Shown: positions 1-35,599, counted from the first letter of the stretch. The stretch: DNA of 64,000 nt from Spirochaetia bacterium (GCA_965208575.1 CBDBOV010000004.1:64001-128000), one strand, 5' to 3'. The notes: generated by a model from the sequence alone, not told the origin. Program-made: numbers and translations.

Positions 1-3000
1 ACGTCCGCGCAGCCATGCCACGAACGCCCGAGTTTCCCGCAGGCGCCAGAAACTGGGGATCTCCTCGTTCGCCATCTGTACCGGGACGTCATGCACCTCG
101 CAGAACGCCCGCACCGGAACCAGGTACTCCCACTCGCGCGCGATGACCGCGCACCGCGACCAGTCCCATTCCTGCGCCAGCTCACAGAGGCGCAGCAACT
201 CCGCCATGACGGTCCGCGCCTGGCCGACCGGATCGCCTCCGGCCGGCAGAATCTGAACCCGCCCGCGCGAGACCGGGTCCAGCGCCGCCCACGCTCCGCC
301 CGGCGGGTCCCCCTCGCGCGCGCGGTCCACACGGATGGGATTTGCCGCCTTCATGCGGTTCCGCGCAGGTTCGATCACCGCGTTGGCCGCCGTCACGATA
401 CGGGCGGTCGAACGGTAATTGGCGGTCAGGTAGACGGGCTTCGGCCCGTAGTCCGCCTCGAAGCGCCGGATGAACTCCACCGACGCTCCGTTGAATGAAT
501 AGATATTCTGATCGTCGTCGCCGACGGCGAACAGGGTGAGCTTGCCCGCGTCGTCTTCCAGCGTGCGGCCGGCCAGCGCCGAGATCAGCTCATACTGCTC
601 CAGAGCCACATCCTGGTATTCGTCGACGAGAATCCACCGGAAGCCGGCGAGCAGGCGCACGCGGCGCTCGTCCGCCTCCTCCTGCGACAGCTCCTCGCCG
701 CGGAGGAGCGCGACCGCACGGTGCATCACGTCCTTGAACGTCGCGTCGTCCGGGCGCTCCGACCGGCCCGTGAAGCTCTGCCCCGCCAACCGTATGGCAA
801 GCGCGTGGCAGGTGAGCACCGTCACGCCGCGCGCGTCGTCGCCGACCATCTCCGTGAGCCGGCGGCGGATATCGACGGCCGCGTGACGGTTGTAGGCCAG
901 TGCGAGGATGCCCGCCGCGTTCTCCCGTCTGACGCGGATCAGCCAAGCGATGCGGTGCACCAGCACGCGCGTCTTGCCCGAGCCGGGGCCAGCGAGGACC
1001 AGCACGTTGGTCCGTTCCCGCTCGTCGGCCACGATGCGCTGCTGGACCGGGTTCCCCAGGCTCTCGACGATGGCGCGCCAGGACGCGGGCGTCGTCTGCC
1101 GGCCGATCTCCCGGTCTCGACCAGGCAGCCAGCGGGCGAGAAACTTCTCCTCCGTGAGCGTGAAGTAGTCCATGGCCAGACGCACGGCCTCGCTCATGGT
1201 CGCGAGGCCGCGCTCGGCGAACTCCACCATGACGTGGACCTGCAGCACCTGTCCCTCGTAGTGAAGCGCGAGGGGCTCGAAGTCCGTCCTGGAGAACCCG
1301 CGCCGGTCCCGCTGCTCCAGCCGGATCGTCATCGCCGGGCGGAACACCGCCAGTCCCTTGTTGAGGCGGATCACCTCCAGTTCGTGGAGCCAGAGCAGGG
1401 CCCGGTCCAGCAGCTTGGCGGGGTTCCGGACTCTGGATTTCAGCATAAGATCGGACTCGATCGCCTGCAGGAGTTTCCCGAGCGTGGTCTCTGCCAGGAG
1501 ATCGGTGCCGCGGATTCCGGACGGAAGGCAGCTCAGGAGATGTGCCAGCAGCCGGCCGGCTGCATCGCGGCGTATGTCGGCGGTCTCTTGCAGCTTACCC
1601 CAGTTGCGATGCAGCGTGATCCATGCGGTCTCCGCGTCCCGCTTGCGCACCGTGAGGCTGCCCGCGGCGCCGTCGTCCTCGCCCCTGCCGTCGAAGGCGA
1701 TGCCCCGCACGATCCGGAACAATCGTTCCGGCAGCGGATCGACCAAACCCTGGTCCCGCAGCCCCTGGGCCGCGATACGCAGATGGAGTGACGAACTGTC
1801 TCCCTTGCCGAGGTCGGGAGCCGCCTCCTGCATGTGTTCGATAAGAGCGGTCTCCAAGGCAGCCGCCTCCTGGAGGCGTTTCCGCGACGAGCGGTCCACG
1901 CCGGTGTGGACGAACGCGGTCAGCGCCGTGTCGTTGCTGGCGATGCCGAACCGCTCCAGGTCGTACAGGGCGCCGCGCACCCGTTCCGGGCTCAGGCCCG
2001 AGATCGCCATCAGTTCGTCCGTGCTCACCCCCTCGTCGGCGTGCGCGCCGATCAGAGCTTCCGCGATCCGCAGGAGCTGCCTGCGATATGCTTCCGAGAT
2101 CCTTGCGCTGGTGAGCCGCCGTTTGGCCTCGTCGGCCGTGCTCACCCGGAGCGAGGACGGGAACACCTGCACGACATTCTCCTCGCGGGTGAGGAGTTGC
2201 GACTCCTCCAGCCAGGCGACGGCGGTCCGCACCCGGGTGTCGTCGGTCGCGGAGTCGCGTTCGAATGCTTTCTCCTCGTCCTCGCCGAGGATTTCGCCCG
2301 CGGTCGCCACCACGTCGCCGGCGAACCGCTTCTTCCGGTCGAGGTTGCGCAGGGCTCTCAGGATCCCGTGGATCTCCGCGCGGGTGAGGCGCGAGCGCGC
2401 CGACATGCCGAACTGCCGTTCGACATCGTCGGGCGCATAAAGTAGTACGCAACGGGCCGGGTCGCGGTCGCGCCCAGCGCGGCCAGCCTCTTGGAGATAG
2501 TTCTCCAGCGAGCCTGGTATGTCAGCGTGGACCACCAACCGCACGTCCGGCTTGTCGATCCCCATCCCGAAGGCGTTGGTGGCCGAGATCGCGCGCAGAT
2601 CGCCGGAAATGAAGCGCCGCTGCACCTCCTTCTTCGTTTCCGGAGACAGGCCCGCGTGGAACCGGTCCGCGGCGAGCCCCTTCAACTGAAGGTAGTCCGC
2701 GACGTCCTCGCTCTGCTGCCGCGTCGCACAGTAGACGATCGCGCCGCCCGGCGCGTCGGGCGGCAGATGAGACGCCAGAACCTGATGGATATCCGAGAAC
2801 TTCTCTCCTCCCGTGGTCGGGATCACCTCGAAGGTGAGATTGGCGCGTTCTGCACCGCCGTTGAACACGGCCAATTCGATGTCGAGTTGGTCCCGGAAGT
2901 GCCGGGCGATGTCCCCGACGACATCGGGTTTGGCGGTAGCGGTCAGGCACACGACCGGAGGTATCGGTCCGTCACCTGCTTGCTCGCGGATGAAGCGCCC

Positions 3001-4305
3001 CACATAGCGGTAGTCGGGCCGGAAGTCGTGGCCCCAGCGCGACAGGCAGTGCGCCTCGTCCAGCACCCAGCCGCCGATCTCGCGCTGGTCCAGAGCCCGC
3101 CGCACGGAGCGCGAACGCAGTTGCTCCGGCGCGATCAGCAGGATGCCGGCGTCTCCCAGCCGGATCCGGTCCAGGTCGTCGCCCCGCTCCGGCATCGACA
3201 ACAGGCCGTTGATGGTCACGCAGCAGCCAATGCCCCGCTGCTCCAGGCCAGCAACCTGGTCCGCCATCAGCGCGACCAGGGGCGATATCACGACCGTCAA
3301 CGCACCGGTCTTGTCGTAGCGCGAAAGCGCAGGGATCTGGTAGCAGAGCGACTTCCCGGTGCCGGTGGGGAGAATCCCGAGCACGTGCCGTCTCGCCATC
3401 GCCTCCTCGACGATGGCCTGCTGCATTGGCCTGCCGTCGGCATCCGGCGGTTCAGGACGAAAGCCGTCGTACCCGAACCAGCGTTTCAACTCCTTGCCCG
3501 CGTCATGGCGCTGCCGGCACCAACCGCAGGCCGGATCGGTGCAGGCAGTATCCCTGAGGCGGCGCACCAGTCGCCCCGCTTCCGGAAACTGGTGGCGCAC
3601 CCAGGGCGGCATCACCGAGTTGCCGCCCGCCACCGACAGCCATGCCAGGGCATAAGCCAGCGCCCAGCCGAGCTTAGCCCCCATCGCGATTACCTCGCTC
3701 GCTTGGGTGGTGCAAGCGGCACTCTCCAGTCTCCGGTCAATCGCCGCCATGGCCTCGGCCTGAGATGGACGGCGAACTCGCCGAGCCTGCCGGAAGAGTC
3801 GGTCCAGAGCGCGGTCCGCGCCGGTGTAATCCGGCGTGCACAACCAGTGCCATGCGGCGAGCAGATCCGGTGCGGCCTTGGCCAAGGCCTCGCGCTGGTC
3901 GCCGAAGAGTCTCAGCGCTATGCGGGAGTCGAGCTCGGGATCGTTCACTCGGCCACGTTTGAGACCGCCGTCCTGATAGTGTTTGATGAGGCTGTGGTAG
4001 GGGTTGCGGGGAAAGGCGAGCGGGCTTAGCCGCAACGTGTCAACCGCTGGCAGCTTGAGCAGCCGGAGGTCCGGCTTCGCCGCCGCCAGGTAGGGCAGGT
4101 CGAAGGCAATCAGATTGTGCCCCAGCACGACGGACGCGCCCTCGGCGAAGTCGTCGAGCCTCGCCAGAGCGGCGAACAGTCCGCCGCCGGAATGCACCAG
4201 GCTCCGGCCGGTGTCCGCTCGAACCGCCGCCAGGGTATGAATTCGGTTATCCTTGCCGATTTCCAGATCCAGCGAGAGGCAACGTGGTGCAGATTTCGTA
4301 TCCAC
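1..4305 (-). CDS. Large DEDD-exonuclease-like + RecQ (SF2) + UvrD (SF1) fusion helicase, 3' end outside the window
   Basis: Not in the ORF track; segments were translated by hand from GTG 4305, in frame to base 1. Motifs: CLSLDLE and VLGHNLIAFD (DEDD-like), HVLGILPTGTGKSLCYQIPA and LDEAHC (RecQ), NVLVLAGPGSGKTRVLVHRIA and WILVDEYQD (UvrD). Confidence 0.9.
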   Translation of the reverse strand, partial: MDTKSAPRCLSLDLEIGKDNRIHTLAAVRADTGRSLVHSGGGLFAALARLDDFAEGASVVLGHNLIAFDLPYLAAAKPDLRLLKLPAVDTLRLSPLAFPRNPYHSLIKHYQDGGLKRGRVNDPELDSRIALRLFGDQREALAKAAPDLLAAWHWLCTPDYTGADRALDRLFRQARRVRRPSQAEAMAAIDRRLESAACTTQASEVIAMGAKLGWALAYALAWLSVAGGNSVMPPWVRHQFPEAGRLVRRLRDTACTDPACGWCRQRHDAGKELKRWFGYDGFRPEPPDADGRPMQQAIVEEAMARRHVLGILPTGTGKSLCYQIPALSRYDKTGALTVVISPLVALMADQVAGLEQRGIGCCVTINGLLSMPERGDDLDRIRLGDAGILLIAPEQLRSRSVRRALDQREIGGWVLDEAHCLSRWGHDFRPDYRYVGRFIREQAGDGPIPPVVCLTATAKPDVVGDIARHFRDQLDIELAVFNGGAERANLTFEVIPTTGGEKFSDIHQVLASHLPPDAPGGAIVYCATRQQSEDVADYLQLKGLAADRFHAGLSPETKKEVQRRFISGDLRAISATNAFGMGIDKPDVRLVVHADIPGSLENYLQEAGRAGRDRDPARCVLLYAPDDVERQFGMSARSRLTRAEIHGILRALRNLDRKKRFAGDVVATAGEILGEDEEKAFERDSATDDTRVRTAVAWLEESQLLTREENVVQVFPSSLRVSTADEAKRRLTSARISEAYRRQLLRIAEALIGAHADEGVSTDELMAISGLSPERVRGALYDLERFGIASNDTALTAFVHTGVDRSSRKRLQEAAALETALIEHMQEAAPDLGKGDSSSLHLRIAAQGLRDQGLVDPLPERLFRIVRGIAFDGRGEDDGAAGSLTVRKRDAETAWITLHRNWGKLQETADIRRDAAGRLLAHLLSCLPSGIRGTDLLAETTLGKLLQAIESDLMLKSRVRNPAKLLDRALLWLHELEVIRLNKGLAVFRPAMTIRLEQRDRRGFSRTDFEPLALHYEGQVLQVHVMVEFAERGLATMSEAVRLAMDYFTLTEEKFLARWLPGRDREIGRQTTPASWRAIVESLGNPVQQRIVADERERTNVLVLAGPGSGKTRVLVHRIAWLIRVRRENAAGILALAYNRHAAVDIRRRLTEMVGDDARGVTVLTCHALAIRLAGQSFTGRSERPDDATFKDVMHRAVALLRGEELSQEEADERRVRLLAGFRWILVDEYQDVALEQYELISALAGRTLEDDAGKLTLFAVGDDDQNIYSFNGASVEFIRRFEADYGPKPVYLTANYRSTARIVTAANAVIEPARNRMKAANPIRVDRAREGDPPGGAWAALDPVSRGRVQILPAGGDPVGQARTVMAELLRLCELAQEWDWSRCAVIAREWEYLVPVRAFCEVHDVPVQMANEEIPSFWRLRETRAFVAWLRGR

Positions 4306-6672: not shown

Positions 6673-7701
6673 TCAGTGCAGGGTTATGGTTTCACCCGTT
6701 CGGGCGGATTGCAGGATGGCGTGGGAGACTTGTAGCGCCTTGTGGCCATCCGTCACGGAGGCGAGGGGTTTGCGTCCTGTGGCGATCGATTCGATGAAAT
6801 CGTCGGTCTGGCGGCGGTAGGACTGGTCGTCGAGGTCGTCCTGCAGCATCTCGACGACTTCGAACTCGTCGTCGTCGGTCTTGCGGTGGAACTCGCGGCT
6901 GCACCAGATGCCGTTGTTGCCGAGCGCGGTGCCCGACACGAACGCCGTGCCGCGTGTGCCGAGCACGCCGCGGCTGTTGAAGCCGATGCGGCTCGACCAG
7001 CTCGCGTTGATCACCGCCGAGGCGCCGCTGCGCAACCGCAGCAGTACGTGCGCATTGTTGTCGAAGCCGTCCAGGTCGGTGGCGGTGCTGAAGGTGACGC
7101 CGCTGACCGCCGCGACCTCGTCGGCCATGATCCAGCGCACCAGGTCGATGTCGTGCGACAGCGACTCCACCGTCATGCCGCACAGCGTGGCCGGGTCGGT
7201 GCGCCAGTTGTTGCCGCGCGCCGTCCCGAGTGCGCCGGCGCCCATGCCGAAGCGCTGGCACCAGAAGTGGTGCAGCCTGCCGAGCGAGCCTCCCCGCGCG
7301 GTGTCGTGGAGACGCCGGTAGCCGGTCCGGTACCGCTGGTTGAAGCCCATCACCGCCCCAACGTCCTGGCGCTCCGCCGCTTCGACAATCGCCGCGCCGT
7401 CGTCCTCGGTGACGGCGAGCGGTTTCTCGCAGAACACGTGCTTTCCCGCGGCGATCGCCGGCACGGCGTACTCGCGGCGGAACCCCGGCGGGGTAAGAAC
7501 GTACACGGCATCGCACCGCTCCAGCGCCGGGGCGAGGCAGTCGAACGGCTCACCGCCCCAGCGCGCCGCAAACCGCTCGCGCCGTTCGCGGTCAATGTCG
7601 ACCGCCGCCACGATTTCGGCGTCGCGGTTCTCTGCCAGCGCGAGACCGTGCTGCCGGGCGATTCCGCCGGTACCGACCACCGCGATCCTGACCTGCGCCA
7701 T
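6673..7701 (-). CDS. Gfo/Idh/MocA family oxidoreductase
   Basis: MAQVRIAVVGTGGIA, AGKHVFCEKP and GFNQRY; ATG at 7701 chosen as start. Confidence 0.9.
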   Translation of the reverse strand: MAQVRIAVVGTGGIARQHGLALAENRDAEIVAAVDIDRERRERFAARWGGEPFDCLAPALERCDAVYVLTPPGFRREYAVPAIAAGKHVFCEKPLAVTEDDGAAIVEAAERQDVGAVMGFNQRYRTGYRRLHDTARGGSLGRLHHFWCQRFGMGAGALGTARGNNWRTDPATLCGMTVESLSHDIDLVRWIMADEVAAVSGVTFSTATDLDGFDNNAHVLLRLRSGASAVINASWSSRIGFNSRGVLGTRGTAFVSGTALGNNGIWCSREFHRKTDDDEFEVVEMLQDDLDDQSYRRQTDDFIESIATGRKPLASVTDGHKALQVSHAILQSARTGETITLH

Positions 7702-9307
7702 GATGCGGACTGTCCACCGGATGGCCGTGCAGCGGCAAGGGGCGCCGGTCTTCGTGATCTGCATCGGCTTCGGCGCAGCCGATCAGCGTGTTTCCGCGGC
7801 TGTTCAGGACAGGGGTGGGACGGGAAGAGATCCGAACGCGTAGATTGGAGTTAACGGTCCGGATATGAAATAAGTGTACTATTAGCGGCAGGTACTCGAA
7901 AAACTTATAAATTTGAATTATTGTTAGGAAGGTCTGTCTCCTTGAGGCGTCCTGTGTCGGAAACAATGGTGAGATTGAGATCATCGTACTCTCTTCCCTT
8001 CGGCTTGGGTCGCGCCGGTCTGGTGCTGCTCCTGCTCCTCGCGCTCGCGGGGTGTGCGGGGATGGAATCCCGTTCGCCCACGCCCGTGGTCACCATCGAA
8101 TGGGAGGCGAAGCGGGTAGCCGCGGGCAGTCCGGTGCACTTCCTGGTCCGGGCAGCACCGGCCCCGCGGGCGGCCCTGACCATCGGGGTCAAGATCACCG
8201 CCTCCGGCTGCGAGCTTACGCATGCGCCGAGGTCGGTGACGATCGTCGCGGGCGAGTCGCTCGCCATGCTGATGGTGACGACCGGCACCCAGGTCGGCGA
8301 CGCGGGTTGCGTGGTCACCGCCGCGATCGCCGGCGGCGCGGGCTACCGGAAGAGCGATGGAGACGCCGCGTCGGCCAGCGCCACCGTGACGCCGGAGCAG
8401 ACTCGGGAGCCTCGGGCGCCGATGCTGCCGGTGGTGACCATCATGGAGACCGCCAAGTCGGTAGCGGAGGGCAGCCCGGTGTCGTTCACGCTGACCGCGA
8501 CGCCGCCACCGGCGTCCGACTTGCCGGTCACCGTGCGCTGGTCGGAGATTGGCTCGTTCCTGCCGCCGAGCCCTCCGGAGACGGTCACCATCCCGAGGAC
8601 CGGAACGGTGGAGTTGACGGAGACCATCCCCGACGACAGTGCGGACGAGGTAGACGGCTCGGTGACGGTCGCCGTCGAACCCGGCAGCGATTACAGGGTC
8701 GGTTCGCCGGGCTCGGCCACCGTGGCCGTCGCCGACAACGACCAAGCCCCGACCGGAGCGACGCCGTCGCCGCCGCCACCCACAACCGGGGAACCTCAAG
8801 GACCTCAAGGGGCGACAGGGCCGACCGTTTCGGTGGGCATCGCGGCAGACGCTTCGAGCGTGACCGAGGGTGAAACTGCATCGTTCACGGTGACCGCCGA
8901 TCCGGCGCCGCTGTCCGACCTGGTTGTCAAATTCTCAGTAGGTGCGGCTTACACAGTGGAAGAACCGATGCTCATGTTGGACGTAGGGTGGTTGGACAGC
9001 ATTTCGTTGACGGTCACGATCTCCGCATCGTCCAGCACGGCAACCTACAGCATAGGCACCCCCGATGACGGTAAGCCACAGAGGACAGCCTACGTGACCG
9101 TCACGGTGGCTCCGGGCACCGGCTACGTGGTCGACCCTCGTAGGCAATCTGCGCAAGTCTCACTGGTTCACAAGGCCTGATCGACCGCGCCTGCCGCGGG
9201 ACGGCGCGCCTTCGAGCGGGGTGTCCGGCCCCGCGCGGGGGCACCGACCGCGACCTTGATCTGCGCCATGATGCGGACTGTCCACCGGCTGGCCGTGCAG
9301 CGGCAAG
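7693..9307. repeat. 47-bp direct repeat (7693-7739 and 9261-9307, one mismatch) bracketing the Calx-beta gene
   Basis: ctgcgccatgatgcggactgtccaccgg(a/c)tggccgtgcagcggcaag is present at both positions. Confidence 0.9.
7966..9180 (+). CDS. Lipoprotein with three Calx-beta/Ig-like repeats and a Pro-rich linker (adhesin-like)
   Basis: Lipobox LLALAGC; repeats PVVTI..V.EG.P.SFTLTA.P.P.SDL.V and D.DGSVTV.V.PG..Y.V. AT-rich block upstream (7860-7930). Confidence 0.75.
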   Translation: MVRLRSSYSLPFGLGRAGLVLLLLLALAGCAGMESRSPTPVVTIEWEAKRVAAGSPVHFLVRAAPAPRAALTIGVKITASGCELTHAPRSVTIVAGESLAMLMVTTGTQVGDAGCVVTAAIAGGAGYRKSDGDAASASATVTPEQTREPRAPMLPVVTIMETAKSVAEGSPVSFTLTATPPPASDLPVTVRWSEIGSFLPPSPPETVTIPRTGTVELTETIPDDSADEVDGSVTVAVEPGSDYRVGSPGSATVAVADNDQAPTGATPSPPPPTTGEPQGPQGATGPTVSVGIAADASSVTEGETASFTVTADPAPLSDLVVKFSVGAAYTVEEPMLMLDVGWLDSISLTVTISASSSTATYSIGTPDDGKPQRTAYVTVTVAPGTGYVVDPRRQSAQVSLVHKA

Positions 9308-28503: not shown

Positions 28504-29941
28504 GGGTGCGAACGCCGAAAGCGGTAGCAAATCATTGACTCTGAGGCGGAAAAAAGGTCTACCTACCCCACGACACCACACCATGGGGAGGTAGACCATG
28601 AATACGGAAGGACTTATAACGGCCGCCGAGGGCCTTGTCAAGGAGTTGCAAGGGCGCATCAACGGCGGCCGGATGGATCTCCAGGAGGCGGAAGCCAAGA
28701 TCCTTGAGATGGTGAACTGGATCGGCGACGAGATGGTGCAGGAAGTGGTAGCCGGACTCGCGGAGCCGACATCCGCCAACCAGATCACGGTTGGCGGTGA
28801 GGTGGCAGTGTTCGAGCGGGTGCGTAACCTGCGGTTCATCAACCGCTTCGGCGAAGAAGTGGTGCACCCGCGGCGCTGCTACCGGTACCGGCACCGGAGC
28901 GGAGGCGTGGCGCCGCTGGATGTGAAGCTGGGGATCGACGGGTGCTTCGGATTCTCACCGCTGATGACGTACCTGATCTGCATGCTGGGCGCGGATGAGT
29001 CGTATGCCGGTGCAGCGGCAAAACTGGAGGCGATGCTCGGGTTCAAGGTGAGCTCGACGGCGGTGCAGCGCACTACCGAGAAGACGGGAGAGCGGATACC
29101 CGATACCCCCGACGATCTAATTGATGAGCAGCGTCAGCGGCAGCCATGTTCCCTGATGGTGGTCGAGGTAGACGGAACGACGAGCCCGCAGATCACGGAG
29201 CAGGAAGGGATTACTGGTCTTGCCAGCCTCCGGGCGCCGACCTGTTACAAGGAGTGCAACCTGATAGTCATCGAGAAGCACGATGATGGCAAGGTGATCG
29301 ACCGCTGGACCGGAGGACGCTATGGACCACGCGGTGAGTTTGCCGGCTACGCCGAGCAGGCTGGACTGCGAATGGGCTTCCTGGACGCTCCACGAACGCT
29401 GTTCCTCGGTGATGGTGCACACCACAACTGGGAACTGCAGCAGACCCACTTCCCCGGCGCGATACCGATCCTGGACTACTACCACGCGGCTGAGCACCTC
29501 GCCGATTACTGCAAGCTGCTGTCTGCTACGCTACGCGATGCCGTCGAGCGCAGCTTGTCCACGATGATGTGGGAAGGCGAGGTGCTGCAGATGATCCACG
29601 AGATGAAGCGTTCACTGTCGAAGGTCACCGATACTGACGAAGCGTGGAAGCAGATCAACTACTTCACGAACAACCAGGACCGTATGGACTATGCCCGTTA
29701 CCGCGATCTCGGGTGGCCGATCGGCAGTGGCTTGGTCGAAGGGCAGTGCAAATTGGTTGTCGGTCGACGCTTCAAGGGCAACGGGATGAGATGGCGACCG
29801 CACGACAACCGCTGCGTGCTACGCACCCGTCTGGCTCTGCTCAACGGCGACCTCAAGCGCTATTTCAGTCCTCCTGACGACTGCGAGATCAAAGCGGCCT
29901 GATCGTGTCAACCCCTGTTACCGCTTTTGGCATTGGCACCC
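28504..29941 (+). mobile_element. Complete ISKra4-type insertion sequence
   Basis: Imperfect IRs gggtgcgaacgccgaaagcggtagc / gggtgccaatgccaaaagcggtaac; 9-bp direct repeat AGCGTTGGC at 28495-28503 and 29942-29950. Confidence 0.9.
28598..29902 (+). CDS. ISKra4-family (UPF0236) DDE transposase
   Basis: VEVDG, FLGDGA..NW, ILDYYHA and RMDY..YR..GWPIGSGLVEGQCK..RFKGNGMRW. Confidence 0.9.
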   Translation: MNTEGLITAAEGLVKELQGRINGGRMDLQEAEAKILEMVNWIGDEMVQEVVAGLAEPTSANQITVGGEVAVFERVRNLRFINRFGEEVVHPRRCYRYRHRSGGVAPLDVKLGIDGCFGFSPLMTYLICMLGADESYAGAAAKLEAMLGFKVSSTAVQRTTEKTGERIPDTPDDLIDEQRQRQPCSLMVVEVDGTTSPQITEQEGITGLASLRAPTCYKECNLIVIEKHDDGKVIDRWTGGRYGPRGEFAGYAEQAGLRMGFLDAPRTLFLGDGAHHNWELQQTHFPGAIPILDYYHAAEHLADYCKLLSATLRDAVERSLSTMMWEGEVLQMIHEMKRSLSKVTDTDEAWKQINYFTNNQDRMDYARYRDLGWPIGSGLVEGQCKLVVGRRFKGNGMRWRPHDNRCVLRTRLALLNGDLKRYFSPPDDCEIKAA

Positions 29942-29959: not shown

Positions 29960-30767
29960 TCAGAGGCCGAGGCGTTGGTATTGGCAGTCGGGGGCTTCGA
30001 CGGCGGCGAGATGGTCGCGCAGGAAGGTGGCCATGCGCTCCTCCAGGGCGGGGTCGCGGAGCGCGTGCTGTTGGCCGGGGTCGGTTTCGCCGTCGAACAG
30101 CAGGTTGAAGTCGGGGGCGTCCAGCGCCGCCTCCGAGGGTTGCCGCCAGCGTAGCTGCGCGTAGCCACGTTGGCTCGGGTACCTGAGAAAGTAGCCGTAT
30201 TCCACGTCCGGCCGGTTCACCGCCAGGAAGTCCTGGCTGCCGCGCGGCATCATCGTGTGATGGTGCACCCAGCTCTCGGGCAGTGCCTGCCGGAAGTATC
30301 GGTAATGGCCGTCGGTCAGGCACACGTCCTTGCCGAAGCCGCCGTACAGCACCGCCTCGTGGTGGTCGGCGTCGGCGGCCAGGAGGTGGCACAGCGAGCG
30401 GCCCTGCACCTGTGCCGGCGTCGCCATGCCGTGCAGCTCCAGGAAGGTGGGCATCAGGTCGATGGTGGTGGTCAGGGCGTGCCGTACCCGGCGCCCGCCG
30501 GCGGCGCCCGGCGCGCACACGATCAACGGGATGTGCGCCAGTTCATCGTACAGCGCCATCTGCATCTTGCCCCAGTAGCCGCGCTCGCCGAGGATGTGGC
30601 CGTGGTCGGTGGTCAGCACCACCACGGTGTCGTCCCACATGCCGTGCTCGTCCAGCTTGTCGAGCAGCTTGCCGAGCCAGTGGTCGGCCATGGTCAGCGC
30701 GCCGCCGTAGCAGGCGCGGATGTGGCGCACCGTCTGCTCGTCGTCCAACTCCGGGTCGAGGCGCCCG
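29960..30767 (-). pseudogene. Sulfatase, C-terminal part (interrupted by the transposon at 30768-34927)
   Basis: YGRLDPE...DHWLGKLLD, VVVLTTDHG, HIPLIV, TIDLMPT and LFD..TDPGQ. Confidence 0.9.
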
Positions 30768-30917
30768 TAACCACGGGCACGAAATTCGAGGTGGTTGACC
30801 GAGGAATCTGGGCACGGTAGGAGCTGGGAAAAAGAAAAGCCCCTCCGGGAGCTTGCAAAGAAGCCCCGGAGGGTGCCTCCTTCTCTGTGGAAAACAAACG
30901 GAGAGGAGGTGGCACCT

Positions 30918-31472
30918 TTGTGGCACAAGTTGCTGCGAGACGCAAGGTTGCATCAAGTACTGCTGGAGGCGGACCGGGAGATCGCGAGCGAGACGCGAGC
31001 GAAGGGGTGCCCGGCGTGCGGCGGTCGGCTGCACGTGGCGACCTACGAACGCAAGCCGCGCAGCGGAGTGCAGCTGCCGGCGGAGTACGACAAACGGTTC
31101 AGTTTCTGTTGCGCGAAAGACGGGTGCCGGAAACGGGTGACGCCGGCGTCGCTGCGGTTTCTGGGGCGGCGTGTGTACTTGGGACTGATCGTGGTGCTGG
31201 TACCGGTGTTGCGGCATGGGCCGAGCCCGACGCGGGTACGGCGGTTGCGAGAACTGGTGGGGGTGAGCCGGCGCACGGTGGAGCGCTGGTGCCGGTGGTG
31301 GAGGAGCGAGTTCGTGCAGACGCCGTTCTGGCGGCTGGCGCAGGGAGAGTTCGCGGAACCGGTGGCGCCCGAAGAGCTGCCGAGTTCCCTGCTGCAGGGG
31401 TTCGGCGGTGATGACGAGAGCAAGCTGGTGGGCGCGCTGAGATTCCTGGGACCGCTGAGCGGGACGGCATAA
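30918..31472 (+). CDS. Transposon accessory protein with Zn-ribbon and HTH
   Basis: CPACGG...FSFCCAKDGCRKR; HTH-like RLRELVGVSRRTVERW; GGAGG before TTG 30918. Confidence 0.75.
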   Translation: MWHKLLRDARLHQVLLEADREIASETRAKGCPACGGRLHVATYERKPRSGVQLPAEYDKRFSFCCAKDGCRKRVTPASLRFLGRRVYLGLIVVLVPVLRHGPSPTRVRRLRELVGVSRRTVERWCRWWRSEFVQTPFWRLAQGEFAEPVAPEELPSSLLQGFGGDDESKLVGALRFLGPLSGTA

Positions 31473-31580
31473 GGAGCAACATTTCTGCGGGGCGGGGGCA
31501 ATCCGCAGAAGTTGGCCGTCGGCGGCTTTGGAGCAGGCGGCTACGGTAGCGCATATCCGACGGAACGGAGGGCGTTACCG

Positions 31581-33047
31581 ATGAGCGAGAGGACAGAGTC
31601 CGGGGTGCACGAACGCTGGGCACATTTTCGGTTCGCGGTGGTTGGCAGGCTGCTGGCAGCACCGCCGGCGCGGGGCCAACTGCGTGCGGAACTGGAGCGG
31701 CTGGCGGCGCGCACCTGGAAGCACCCGGTGACCGGCAAGCCGACGCGGTTCGCCTACGCCACCATCGAACGCTGGTACCTGGTGGCGCGCAACGCCGGTC
31801 AGGATCCGGTGGCGGCGCTACGGCGCAAGGTGCGCAAGGACGCCGGTCGGCAGAGAACGATGGCAGACGAACTGCGGCGAGCGGTGCGGGCTCAGTATCG
31901 AGAGCACCCGAGTTGGAGCGCGCAGTTGCACTACGACAACCTGGTGACGCTGGCCGAGAGCAACCGCGAGCTGAGGCCGGTGCCGTCCTATTGGACCGTG
32001 CGACGGTTCATGAAGGCGCACGGCCTGGCGCGACGCCCGCGGCGCGGCGCCCGCAACACGGTCGGCGCCGAGCGTGCCGCGGCGCGCCTGGAGGAGCGCG
32101 AGGTGCGCAGCTACGAAGTCGAATACGTCGGCGGTTTGTGGCACTGGGACTACCATCACGGCTCCCTGAAGGTGGTGACCGCGCAAGGCGAGTGGGAGAG
32201 GCCGCTGATGTTCGGCGTGCTGGACGACCGCTCGCGCCTTGCCTGCCACGTGCAATGGTATCTGGGCGAGACCGCGGAGAACACGGCGCACGGACTGATG
32301 CAGGCGTTCGCCAAGCGTGGCCTGCCGCGCGCCGGCATGAGTGACAACGGCGGTGCGATGACGGCGGCTGAGATCGTCGAGGGACTGCCCCGATTGGGCA
32401 TCGTGCATGAGACCACGCTGCCCTACAGCCCCTACCAGAACGGCAAGCAGGAAGCGTTCTGGGGCCAAGTCGAGGGGCGACTGCTGGCGATGCTTGAAGG
32501 CGTCGGGGACCTGAGCCTGGCGCTGCTGAACGAGGCCACCCAGGCGTGGGTGGAACGGGAATACAACCGCAAACGGCATGCCGAGACCGGGCAAACGCCG
32601 GCGGCACGCTGGCTGGCGGGCCCGGAGGTATTGCGCGCGGCGCCCGCCAGTGCGGCGTTGCGGATCGCCTTCACGCGCGCCGCGACCCGCACCCTGCGGC
32701 GCAGCGACGCCACGGTTTCAATCGAGGGCCGCCGCTTCGAGGTGCCCAACCGCTACCGGCACCTGCGGCGCATCGCGGTGCGCTATGCCGCCTGGGATCT
32801 CACTACCGTGCATCAGGTCGACGAGCACACCGGCACCGTGCTGTGCCGCCTGTACCCGCAGGACAAAACCAGCAACGCCAGTGGCCTGCGCCGCGCGCTC
32901 GAGCCGGTCTCCGACGAACCGCCCGCACCACCGGCTGCGCCGGCGACCCGGATGGCGCCGCTGCTTGCCAAACTGATCGCCGAACGCGCCGCCAGCGGCC
33001 TGCCGCCGGCCTATCTGCCCAAGGACGAACAAGGAGCCGCCCAATGA
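31581..33047 (+). CDS. DDE integrase-core transposase (IS481/Mu-like, with Mu C-terminal-like domain)
   Basis: LWHWDYHH, GVLDDRSR, SDNGGAM, PYSPYQNGKQE and EYNRKRH.ETGQTP. Confidence 0.9.
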   Translation: MSERTESGVHERWAHFRFAVVGRLLAAPPARGQLRAELERLAARTWKHPVTGKPTRFAYATIERWYLVARNAGQDPVAALRRKVRKDAGRQRTMADELRRAVRAQYREHPSWSAQLHYDNLVTLAESNRELRPVPSYWTVRRFMKAHGLARRPRRGARNTVGAERAAARLEEREVRSYEVEYVGGLWHWDYHHGSLKVVTAQGEWERPLMFGVLDDRSRLACHVQWYLGETAENTAHGLMQAFAKRGLPRAGMSDNGGAMTAAEIVEGLPRLGIVHETTLPYSPYQNGKQEAFWGQVEGRLLAMLEGVGDLSLALLNEATQAWVEREYNRKRHAETGQTPAARWLAGPEVLRAAPASAALRIAFTRAATRTLRRSDATVSIEGRRFEVPNRYRHLRRIAVRYAAWDLTTVHQVDEHTGTVLCRLYPQDKTSNASGLRRALEPVSDEPPAPPAAPATRMAPLLAKLIAERAASGLPPAYLPKDEQGAAQ

Positions 33048-33883
33048 ACCGAAAGCTGTTGTCTCTCTACGGTCTGAAATGGAACCCGTTTGGTCCCGAC
33101 GTGCCGACCGAGGCGCTGCATGTCAGCCCCGCCGTCGAGTCCTTCTGCTGGCGCATCGCGCAGCTCTCCGGCGAAGGCGGCTTTGCGCTCGTCACCGGCA
33201 GTCCCGGCACCGGCAAGTCGGTCACCCTGCGCATTCTCGCTGACCGGCTCATGGCTCAGCGCGACGTCAAGGTCGGCGTCCTGTCCCGGCCACAGGCTGG
33301 CCTGCATGACTTCTACCGCGAGATGGGCGACCTGTTCGGCGTCGAGTTGCGACCCCACAACCGCTGGGCCGGCGCCAAGCTCCTGCGCAATCGCTGGCAG
33401 ACCCATATCGACTCTGCTCTGCTGCGTCCTGTCCTGCTCGTCGATGAGGCGCAGGAGACCGCGCCGTCGGTGTTGAATGAACTGCGCCTGCTGTGCCAGG
33501 CACAACTCGACTCCCATCTCCTGCTCACCGTCATCCTGGCCGGCGACCGCCGCCTCAGCCAGCGCCTGGAGGCGGAGGAACTGCTGCCCCTGGACAGCCG
33601 TATCAGGGTCCGCCTCTCATTGTCTCGCGCCAGCTCCGAACAACTGCTCGCCTGCCTCCGCCATGCCCTCTCCAAGGCCGGCGCGGCGCCGCTCATCACC
33701 CCTGAACTATGCGCAACCCTGTGTGACCACGCAGCCGGCAACTATCGCGCTCTGTTCAACATGGCCGGCGAGTTGCTGGCCGTCGCCGCACACCATGACC
33801 TCGACCGTCTTGATGAGAACCTGTTCCTGGAGACCTTCGCGGCGCCTCCCTCCGACGCCGACGGCGCCGGGCGCTGGCGATGA
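33044..33883 (+). CDS. ExeA/GspA-like AAA ATPase (TnsC/MuB-like regulator)
   Basis: YGLKWNPF, GSPGTGKS, LLVDEAQ and VILAG; ATGA coupling to the transposase. Confidence 0.88.
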   Translation: MNRKLLSLYGLKWNPFGPDVPTEALHVSPAVESFCWRIAQLSGEGGFALVTGSPGTGKSVTLRILADRLMAQRDVKVGVLSRPQAGLHDFYREMGDLFGVELRPHNRWAGAKLLRNRWQTHIDSALLRPVLLVDEAQETAPSVLNELRLLCQAQLDSHLLLTVILAGDRRLSQRLEAEELLPLDSRIRVRLSLSRASSEQLLACLRHALSKAGAAPLITPELCATLCDHAAGNYRALFNMAGELLAVAAHHDLDRLDENLFLETFAAPPSDADGAGRWR

Positions 33884-34851
33884 ACCTCCTCCCCGTCGTC
33901 CCCGCCCATCGCCTCGCCGTCCGCCCCGAGCAGCACCGCTGGCTGGTCACCGGTCTCTGGGCCGAGCAGGCGGTGGGTATTGTCGGAGGCGAGCCCAAGT
34001 CCTATAAATCATTCCTGGCTCTCGACCTCGCCGTCGCCGTCGCGGCCGGCTCCCCGTGCCTGCGCCGCTTCCCCGTGCCCACCCCAGGTCGCGTCCTGCT
34101 CTACGCCGCTGAGGACGCCCTCGAGGTCGTCCGTCTCCGCCTCGACGGCATCTGCGGCGCCGCAGGCGTCCCCCTCCGCGGCCTCGACCTCCAGGTCATC
34201 ACCGCCCCCTCCCTCCGCCTTGATCTGCCCGCCGATCGCCTCCGCCTCGAACACACCGTCGCCTCTCTGGGGCCGCGCCTGCTCATCCTCGATCCCTTCG
34301 TCCGACTGCATTGCGGCGATGAAAACTCGGCCGCCGAGGTCGCTCCCTTGCTCGCCTTTCTGCGCCATCTCCAGCGTCAACATCATCTCGCCGTCGTCGT
34401 CGTCCATCACGCCAAGAAGGGCGCCGGCCGCCTCCGCGACGGCCAGGCTCTGCGCGGCTCTTCGGAGTTCCACGCCTGGGGCGACTGCAACCTCTTTCTC
34501 CGCCGTCACCGCGATGATCTCACTCTCTCCGTCGAGCATCGCGCTGCTCCTTCTCCTGACCCGATCCCGCTCACCCTCTCCGCCGACGGTGACGCGCTCG
34601 CCTTGGCCGTCACCGACCGCACCGCTCTCACCAACCCTTCCTCGATGTCACTCGATGACCGCATCACCGCCGTTCTCGCCGATTCCGCCGCTCCCCTCCC
34701 CGTCGCACAACTGCGCCCACTCTGCCGCGTCCGCAACGCCACCCTTTACCGCCGTCTCGCTGCACTCTGCCGCGACGGCATTCTCGTCAAGTCGACCGCC
34801 GGCTACCGCCTCGCTTCTCCACCGGCCGCTACCGCTTCCCGTCCCCTCTAG
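33880..34851 (+). CDS. AAA_25 / RepA-like RecA-fold helicase with C-terminal wHTH
   Basis: GGEPKSYKS, VLLYAAED, LLILDP, DENS, VVVHHAKK and LRGSSEF; ATGA coupling. Confidence 0.85.
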   Translation: MNLLPVVPAHRLAVRPEQHRWLVTGLWAEQAVGIVGGEPKSYKSFLALDLAVAVAAGSPCLRRFPVPTPGRVLLYAAEDALEVVRLRLDGICGAAGVPLRGLDLQVITAPSLRLDLPADRLRLEHTVASLGPRLLILDPFVRLHCGDENSAAEVAPLLAFLRHLQRQHHLAVVVVHHAKKGAGRLRDGQALRGSSEFHAWGDCNLFLRRHRDDLTLSVEHRAAPSPDPIPLTLSADGDALALAVTDRTALTNPSSMSLDDRITAVLADSAAPLPVAQLRPLCRVRNATLYRRLAALCRDGILVKSTAGYRLASPPAATASRPL

Positions 34852-34927
34852 GCCGCCCGGGAACGGCATTCGGGAACACCATCAATTTCCGTGCTCACCA
34901 CCCCATCCATGAGCGCGCTCACGCTCA

Positions 34928-35599
34928 CCCGTACAGCGGCCAGGTGAAGTGGTAGCGGTCCCACGAGTCGCCGTATTGCTCGCGGTAGCGCGCCGGGCAG
35001 TCGAACGGCTCGTGCGGGTCGAACACCTCCAGGTGCAGGTGCCAGTCCCGGGCGTCGTGGTTGCGGTCGATGAAGTCGATGGCGCGCGCGAAGCACTGCG
35101 GCGTCGAGTAGTCCTCGTCACGCTCCATGGGTGCCCAGGTCTGGTTGCGCCAGTAGCCCCAGCGGCACGGCCCCTCCAGGCCGCGCGCCCCCTCCGGCTT
35201 GGCCGGCTCCTGCACCAGCGGCCGCCAAGTGTCGCCCTCCTGCCCGCGCACGAACTCCCACGAGCTGTAGATGGTGTTGTAGCCCTCGCCGCCGGAGTGG
35301 AAGTAGTGGTAGTGGTCGGTGATCATGTGGCTGTACACGCCGCGCCGCTCGCGCAGCATGGCCGGCAGGCACTCGTCCCACGGCTGCACCGGGCTCCACG
35401 GCGTCTCCAGGAAGTTGACCCGCCCGGTCAGCATCTCGCGCCGCGCCGGCATGCACGGCAGCGAGCCGGCGAAGTGGTTGTCGAATACCGTCCCCCGTTC
35501 CGCCAGCCGGTCGATGTTGGGCGTGATGGCGAACTCGTTCCCGTAGCAGCGCAGGTAATGCCGGTTCAGCGAATCCATGATGATGAAGATCGTTCTCAC
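34928..35599 (-). pseudogene. Sulfatase, N-terminal part
   Basis: IIMDSLNR, TPNIDRLA, formylglycine motif CMPAR and FDPHEPF; ends at a TGA supplied by the transposon end. Confidence 0.9.

Follow-up and report, generated by a model that had tools for sequence, protein, structure and literature searches.

A 64,000-nucleotide stretch of DNA from a Spirochaetia bacterium (GCA_965208575.1 CBDBOV010000004.1:64001-128000), referred to here as the window, carries a 4160-bp transposon at positions 30768-34927, between two parts of a minus-strand sulfatase gene. Our analysis showed that this insert is a real and recently mobile transposon, with uninterrupted alleles of the sulfatase gene present in other samples. 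By sequence comparison it belongs to a large family, as an AAA_25-bearing form of the named but little-studied Tn6049 kind of element. The explanation that best accounts for the results as a whole is a Tn6049-related mobile element with a Mu-like transposition core, whose fourth gene, g4, would encode a probable helicase for copying the element at a palindrome near its right end; we give this explanation a probability of roughly 0.55.

The insertion and its boundaries

Both parts of the interrupted gene are minus-strand open reading frames (ORFs) matching the Pfam family Sulfatase. The N-terminal part lies at 34928-35599 (E = 7e-23) and the C-terminal part at 29960-30769 (E = 5e-20). The hexamer CCCGTA at 30764-30769 recurs at 34928-34933 as the right copy of the target duplication, and this repeat doubles the Tyr-Gly codons of the sulfatase. 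Duplications of 4, 5, or 6 bp (CCCG, up to CCCGTA) all fit the window copy; when the start of the element is set at 30768 by homology of its tip, the duplication is 4 bp long, as for Tn6049.

Contigs from assemblies of four public runs were compared with window positions 30300-35400. Contigs of X5, X6, and X7, runs from three studies labelled as sponge or marine metagenome, contain the empty target: 30763/30764 is joined to 34928/34929 with one copy of the repeat, and the joint skips 4164 bases, with 5-6 letters ambiguous. The empty-site contig of X6 has 208 letters on one side of the joint and 120 letters on the other. The element itself was found in contigs of X5 and X7, mostly at 95-99% identity. 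Its summed contig depth there exceeds that of the flank, but the depth of contigs is a poor measure and was taken as showing presence only. The X6 contigs match only scattered conserved parts of the element, which was not taken as absence.

The limits of the element, which reads on the plus strand, come from the split gene, the empty site, and the homology of both tips with those of relatives. The initial annotation had held that the insert splits a sulfatase gene and that its boundaries can be read from the interrupted gene, and its coordinates proved exact. An early reading of the ends (start at 30770, a 31-nt 'extra' right end, and an ACCAC repeat) was given up on comparison with the copies in a metagenome-assembled genome (MAG), the complete element L009, and a solo left end, all described below.

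The four genes

Four co-oriented plus-strand genes, g1 to g4, lie between the ends. The last three are coupled by ATGA overlaps at 33044-33047 (g2/g3) and 33880-33883 (g3/g4), as initially annotated. The further description of a compact mobile element with two different ATPases was also borne out, g3 belonging to the AAA_22 family and g4 to the AAA_25 family.

The product of g4 (33880-34851, +, 323 amino acids) is predicted to combine a RepA-like RecA-fold ATPase domain with a C-terminal winged helix. It matches Pfam AAA_25 with an E value of 7e-37, and its profile matched RSF1010 RepA (1g8y, E = 1e-13) among solved structures, RadA being a weak match. The C-terminal 60 residues match winged helices of the Z-alpha type (E about 1e-3). 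The AlphaFold2 (AF2) model has a predicted local distance difference test (pLDDT) score of 81.8, and Foldseek placed RepA first (template modelling (TM) score 0.74 on the target), followed by DnaB, with RadA at ranks 6-7. In PHROG, g4 matched the helicase portions of phage primase-helicases. The earlier description of this gene as RepA-like is therefore upheld by both the profile and the fold search, and we regard g4 as RepA-like in sequence and in predicted fold. In 20 g4 sequences E78, D79, D138, H176, H177, K180, Q189, and R192 are invariant; invariance thus extends over the catalytic Glu/Asp, the Walker B motif, and an arginine-finger-like RGSS motif. A check of superfamily 4 (SF4) helicase motifs found a RecA fold with most of the helicase motifs present and invariant, and a deviant Walker A glycine. 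The predicted complex of g3 with g4 scored 0.00 in a run made without controls, and this is silent on binding.

The DDE transposase gene g2 (31581-33047, +, 488 amino acids) starts with ATG at 31581 in an ORF open from 31512. Pfam identified rve (E = 2.9e-8) together with rve_3 and HTH_32, and residues D190, D255, and E291 are invariant in an alignment of relatives. The best NCBIfam match is the IS481 model NF033577, at 113.1 bits, which does not reach the cut-off of 224. The g2 profile matches the N-terminal DNA-binding region of TnsB (7e-7, residues 70-221 only) and retroviral integrase cores, and g2 also matches phrog_310, 'transposase' (5e-42). Near its C-terminus a peptide of the form PLL ... 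GLPP..P (window about 32950-33040) is invariant in 9 of 9 aligned sequences, Tn6049 included; it may be a docking motif for the ATPase or a host factor.

The putative MuB-like ATPase gene g3 (33044-33883, +, 279 amino acids) matches Pfam AAA_22 (E = 3e-19) and phrog_296, 'DNA transposition protein' (1e-18). Searching solved structures with the g3 sequence gave no significant match, and the fold search was the informative one. With an AF2 model of pLDDT 82.7, Foldseek put the MuB filaments 8xvb/8xvc on top (E = 2.6e-10, TM 0.68-0.72, 23% identity), followed by the origin recognition complex (ORC)/Cdc6 proteins. A reading of the locus as a defence system was rejected, as PADLOC gave only a P-loop-level match of g3 to mad8 (5.8e-6) and none for g1, g2, or g4.

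The first gene, g1 (30918-31472, +, about 184 amino acids), probably encodes a cysteine-rich, zinc-ribbon-like protein with a helix-turn-helix (HTH). The ORF is open from 30795, and the probable start is a TTG at 30918, behind GGAGAGGAGG. In Pfam only a weak match to HTH_28 was found (E = 0.0016). The atlas neighbours of g1 are unnamed clusters, and some further clusters have DUF6431 in 32-44% of their members, which serves as a lead only.

Relation to Tn6049 and other known systems

A tblastn search of plasmids with g2 returned 158 records, 21 of them at 49-54% identity over 95-99% of the query. Among these 21 are two plasmids of Cupriavidus metallidurans CH34, pMOL28 and pMOL30, and the P. 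aeruginosa plasmid pHS87a, which carries Tn6049 as 3517 bp between the published 12-nt repeats, with an orf1 of 181 amino acids, a transposase of 479, an AAA ATPase of 277, and an ORF of 90. NCBI labels the Tn6049 transposase as IS481 family. Tn6049 is described as a 3.5-kb element with 12 copies in CH34 that carries gspA (PMC2864759); its repeats are imperfect and 12 bp long, with a direct repeat of 4 bp (PMC4739549), and its transposition module is said to be one that 'could not be categorized' (PMC6210171). In the article texts searched, neither a mechanism for Tn6049 nor a description of an AAA_25-bearing form was found.

The first three genes of the window element stand in the same order as in Tn6049, an order also present in L057 and L058, and in blastp they are 37% (g1, E = 1e-29), 50% over 95% of the length (g2, 1e-156), and 57% (g3, 8e-107) identical to their Tn6049 counterparts; g1 is 43% identical to its PsJN homologue. 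Also alike are the short, imperfect inverted repeats of the TG...CA type (right tip ...GCTCA, against the left tip TGAGC of the window element's clade), a 4-bp duplication, and a hairpin between the left end and orf1. The fourth gene, however, is small in Tn6049-like transposons (90 amino acids in pHS87a, 71 in PsJN) and has no similarity to the 323-amino-acid g4. Tn6049 also has no GGAA-repeat palindrome, and its tips read TGTGC... rather than the TGAGC... of the window element's clade. The initial annotation had placed the element in a family outside the known insertion sequence (IS) classes. This did not hold, given the homology of g1-g3 to Tn6049 and the matches of g2 and g3 to phage transposase, 'DNA transposition protein', and the MuB structure. 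A known four-gene layout, which it had also reckoned with, does exist in part: Tn6049 has four genes with the first three homologous, but its fourth is unrelated to AAA_25.

Distant plasmid relatives with 28-31% transposase identity keep a partial layout (L141 3310-5290, L142 3440-6326). An Acidithiobacillus plasmid relative has a DUF6431 protein followed by the DDE transposase, and a Kitasatospora plasmid relative has an HTH protein, a DDE transposase, a small ORF, and an ExeA-family ATPase in succession. This suggests that the core arrangement reaches well beyond the Tn6049 clade.

The pairing of a DDE transposase with an AAA+ ATPase is shared with Mu, Tn7 (TnsB-TnsC), and Tn5053 (TniA-TniB), and the fold of g3 is closest to MuB. 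The PHROG transposition families, the N-terminal TnsB match, and the several subterminal sites at the ends are further likenesses to Mu and Tn7. Duplications of 5 bp, the length in Mu, Tn7, and Tn5053, were found in L009 and three MAG copies, and 4 bp in two MAG copies and Tn6049; the window copy fits 4-6 bp. Unlike those systems, the window element has no TnsA, TniQ, or resolvase and is far smaller than Mu, its g3 is only 23% identical to MuB, and Pfam found no Mu-transposase C-terminal domain in g2. IS481 elements have a single transposase gene and measure about 1 kb, whereas four genes including two ATPases lie between the ends here; the IS481 model is the best NCBIfam match for g2, but its 113 bits lie far below the cut-off (224). 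Against the IS21 model NF033546, g2 scored 39 bits (cut-off 160), and g3 is AAA_22/MuB-like with no IstB match. For the ATPase domain of g4, both the sequence and the fold search gave RepA of RSF1010 (IncQ) as the best match, but g4 adds a C-terminal winged helix, has a deviant Walker A, and sits in a transposon with no RepC-like initiator.

Family survey and inheritance of g4

A scan of species-representative genomes seeded with g4 found 49 loci in many phyla. The order g1-g2-g3-g4 was seen in 27 of them and a different order in none; in the remaining loci a contig end interrupts the element, the copy is truncated, or the relationship is too remote for g1 and g2 to be recognised. A second scan, of metagenomes and with a transposase alignment as seed, gave at least 579 relatives, of which the 80 nearest were kept. 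Among these, g4 directly follows g3 in 62 of the 69 loci with a complete g3 and at least 300 nt beyond it. The seven without it comprise four three-gene elements that end after g3 (L124, L129, L133, and L134), one with a 130-amino-acid ORF (L136), one with a more distant AAA_25 (L132), and one that is disrupted (L089).

In every case with definable ends the AAA_25 gene lies inside them: in the window copy (by the empty site), in 11 copies of one MAG, and in L009, a complete element with tips TGAGCG.../...CATGCTCA and a 5-bp duplication; in agreement with this, several contigs stop exactly at the common right tip, 3' of g4. Its place within the element, assumed in the initial annotation, is thereby supported, and the same can be said of conserved gene order and ends, as all g4-seeded loci showing four genes have one order and most of the relatives inspected have common tips.

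Pairwise identities among 52 elements are closely correlated between genes (r = 0.91 for g2-g4, 0.91 for g2-g3, and 0.95 for g3-g4), values reached by 0 of 999 permutations, and the mean identities of the three genes are similar (0.65, 0.67, and 0.69). Given this divergence in step, g4 has been inherited with the core under similar constraint, and it is a long-term, co-inherited component in most of the relatives sampled. A quick IQ-TREE tree of 36 transposases requires 4 changes for the six rows without g4, with at least 3 imposed by well-supported branches. A larger FastTree tree had 94 rows. The great length of both outgroups leaves the root uncertain, and with it the choice between loss and gain of g4; as the position of g4 never varies, repeated loss is the simpler reading.

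Primase-like genes follow g4 in two lineages. One is a DUF3991+Toprim gene in the MAG element (L031 9093-9962), and the other a DnaG-type zinc-ribbon+Toprim gene in the distant locus L051 (8948-9907), whose g3 is 27% identical. At the opposite end, a fifth gene, read divergently from g1 and encoding a protein of about 160 amino acids with a SEC-C zinc motif and tetratricopeptide repeats (TPR), lies inside the left end in L009 (2140-2634, -) and in 45 of the 49 metagenome loci with upstream room. The window copy is without this gene.

Ends and regulatory DNA

The element is bounded by short inverted repeats, imperfect and of the TG...CA type, and has subterminal repeats resembling CCATCAA. The left end (30768-30817, +) begins with the tip TAACCACGGG, the consensus being TGAGC..., and contains at about 30785-30794 a subterminal site that corresponds in inverse form to the CCATCAA-like sites of the right end. 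TGAGC was found as left tip in most of the relatives inspected, and TCAGC in copy B of the host genome and in L020.

The right end (34879-34927, +) closes with the tip ...CACGCTCA and has CCATCAA-like sites at 34879-34886 and 34902-34910. Its layout is common to L008, L009, L011, L013, L019, L020, and the MAG copies, in the order g4 stop, palindrome, two CCATCAA-like sites about 22 nt apart, and tip ...GCTCA. The palindrome consists of 2-3 (N)TTCC units, a loop near CTCTACAG, and 2-3 GGAA(N) units. By regular expression it was found 3' of g4 in 44 of 61 distinct loci, 27 of them by the strict form, and several of the 17 loci that were missed have variant loops by eye. Elsewhere in the DNA of the elements (210 kb) the strict form has no match, and neither form matches Tn6049, PsJN, or the loci without g4.

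Between the left tip and g1 lie two hairpins. The first (30841-30873) is GC-rich and terminator-like on the minus strand, in a 100-nt region that folds with z = -4.5, and it recurs in 7 of 13 other elements displayed, Tn6049 included, with different stem letters. The second (30876-30909, +) is predicted by folding to pair with the g1 ribosome-binding site GGAGAGGAGG; analogues of this pairing are present in six of the 13 (copy B, L019, L020, L021, L024, and L031), again with different stem letters. Both hairpins probably shield the transposase operon against transcription from outside, as is usual for such operons. A search of 30600-35100 against Rfam found nothing near threshold, the single match having an E value of 0.86.

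Copies in the host genome and in one MAG

The host genome (6.5 Mb, 6 contigs) contains a second element, copy B, with 67% identity and all four genes in unchanged order. Copy B (L006 = G000:C5:638000-649000) sits in a CARDB-repeat gene next to an intact paralogue; the two paralogues, about 80% identical, lie at L006 997-2700 and, split by copy B, at 7617-8816 / 2800-3408. A frameshift separates the ATPase domain of its g4 from the winged helix, and the paralogue is too diverged to give the exact duplication of copy B. There is also an 88-bp solo left end, 91% identical, at G000:C6:138127-138214 (L007 about 4128-4215, minus strand). This remnant of a third copy starts with the consensus tip TGAGC (TGAGCACGGG) and breaks off within the loop of the first hairpin. 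Empty sites (in X5, X6, and X7) and further copies (copy B and the solo left end), which the initial annotation had named as evidence to look for, were thus both found. A search of 400 other genomes sampled from the host's phylum gave no match to the transposase with E = 1e-40 or better.

Nineteen loci of one element (among L027-L054) come from a single alphaproteobacterial MAG built from long reads, with full copies of 5192 bp. The tips TGAGCG... / ...CACGCTCA are identical in 7 aligned copies, and both end strings are exact in all 11 two-ended copies. Of these 11, three have a 5-bp duplication, two a 4-bp match, one a 3-bp match, and five none. Several of the MAG loci are 5'-truncated at varying points, and several are interrupted by other insertions of 1.8-2.2 kb. 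Swapped duplications were considered as a signature of replicative intramolecular transposition and rejected: there was one exact 5-mer match between different copies (L046 left flank, L027 right flank), which is in the range of chance and is equally explained by recombination.

Neighbouring sequence

Just downstream of the sulfatase remnant, a 434-amino-acid ORF at window 28598-29902 (+) matches Pfam UPF0236 (E = 6.5e-6), which we take to be a transposase-associated family. This ORF may be another insertion sequence beside the locus.

Proposed mechanism and the role of g4

In the mechanism that we propose, the transposase would bind the subterminal repeats and join the 3' ends of the element to the target across a 4-5 bp stagger, and the MuB-like ATPase g3 would capture the target and present it. 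Since there is neither a second-strand nuclease nor a resolvase, we infer that transposition must involve copying of the element, whether at a strand-transfer fork of the Mu type or in a copy-out step of the IS3/IS481 type. The winged helix of g4 would probably bind the palindrome, with g4 acting as the helicase for this copying, and in two lineages a primase encoded by the element would help. The most likely reading of this gene, which we hold tentatively and at somewhat less than even odds, is loading of g4 at the palindrome followed by unwinding of DNA for the copying. The position of g4 inside the ends, its co-divergence, the palindrome, and the primase-like neighbours make a role in replication plausible, if unproven. 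A helicase-like g4 serving replicative transposition, as put forward in the initial annotation, is our inference too, and it is strengthened by the co-divergence with the core and by the primase-like genes of two lineages.

Several results weigh against this explanation. The P-loop of g4 reads GGEPK[C/S]xK[S/T]; at the position preceding the Walker A lysine most members have C, some have F, Y, or L, and only a few have G, while the window copy has Y. With this glycine replaced, ATP turnover is uncertain. Relatives with three genes or with a small fourth ORF, Tn6049 included, evidently transpose without g4, so g4 is not essential to the chemistry. The initial annotation had called the element intact. 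Its four genes are indeed open, but its left tip is TAACC, two positions off the consensus, and only a decayed remnant of the GGAA-repeat palindrome follows g4 (34832-34877), recognised by comparison with relatives and by its DNA fold (z = +0.95, against -1.7 in L013, -4.2 in L015, -9.0 in L020, and -4.8 in L031). The winged-helix residue and the repeat variant gave raw counts of 20/0/6/26, yet only 3 phylogenetically independent pairs are available (p = 0.5 or more), so that this link is not significant and was not used as support. No circle junction or figure-eight joint was seen among the assembled contigs, and both samples of loci are biased, towards g4 and towards the window transposase.

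Some of these points would also suit a regulatory role. As a DNA-binding regulatory nucleoside triphosphatase (NTPase) rather than a helicase, g4 might act on the right-end palindrome in copy-number control, immunity, choice of ends, or repression or termination of the operon. The deviant Walker A glycine of most members, the fusion of a winged helix to the ATPase, the position of the palindrome between the last gene and the transposase sites, and the continued movement of relatives without g4 speak for such a protein. On the other hand, the catalytic Glu/Asp, the Walker B motif, and the arginine-finger-like RGSS are invariant, the nearest folds are ring helicases, and a pure regulator leaves the primase-like genes after g4 in two lineages unexplained; we consider this role rather unlikely, but the strongest of the three alternatives weighed here. 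The absence of a resolvase or TnsA-like gene could also be met by a RadA/Sms-like helper of branch migration or repair, which would speed the recombinational resolution of cointegrates or the repair of gaps after strand transfer. RadA does appear at ranks 6-7 of the fold matches and weakly in the sequence search, and 5 of the 11 two-ended MAG copies are without matching duplications, as expected after recombination between copies. But RepA and DnaB outscore RadA, host recombination explains the lost duplications equally well, and a dedicated palindrome with primase neighbours points to initiation and not to branch migration; we consider such a helper improbable.

We find it a little less probable again that g4 and its palindrome are a passenger, that is, a captured and swappable replication module of a plasmid or phage that is irrelevant to transposition. 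This would accord with the variable fourth position in the family (none, an ORF of 70-130 amino acids, or AAA_25) and with forms lacking g4 at 3-4 places in the transposase tree. A passenger would not be expected, however, to diverge in step with g2 and g3 at the same mean identity, to be translationally coupled to g3, or to be kept in 62 of 69 loci and also in a distant branch whose g3 is only 27% identical. Moreover, a tblastn search with g4 found no match in 72,556 plasmid records.

Implications

A bolder form of the helicase reading is that the element brings its own replication starter. The RepA-like helicase, with its built-in DNA-binding domain, would load at an origin-like palindrome next to the right end, together with a primase in some lineages, and would drive the copying of transposition or the transient replication of an excised circle; Tn6049 would then be a reduced descendant that has lost this module. 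We regard this as possible, at odds clearly against it. To our knowledge, the known bacterial DDE transposons that are copied during transposition (Mu, Tn3, and those with IS3-type copy-out) borrow the helicase and primase of the host. If the proposal is true, the element would depend less on the restart primosome of its host and would be a prokaryotic, helicase-based counterpart of the 'self-synthesising' transposons.

The uncategorised Tn6049 would gain a place in a wider family. As the element is abundant in metagenomes, with at least 579 transposase relatives in one scan, annotation pipelines are likely to mislabel many such loci as an IS481 transposase with unrelated ATPases. A large family, spread over many phyla, in which a helicase-like gene, a matching palindrome, and in places a primase keep step with the transposase would open the passage from transposition into replication to experimental tests in a four-gene, 4-kb system.

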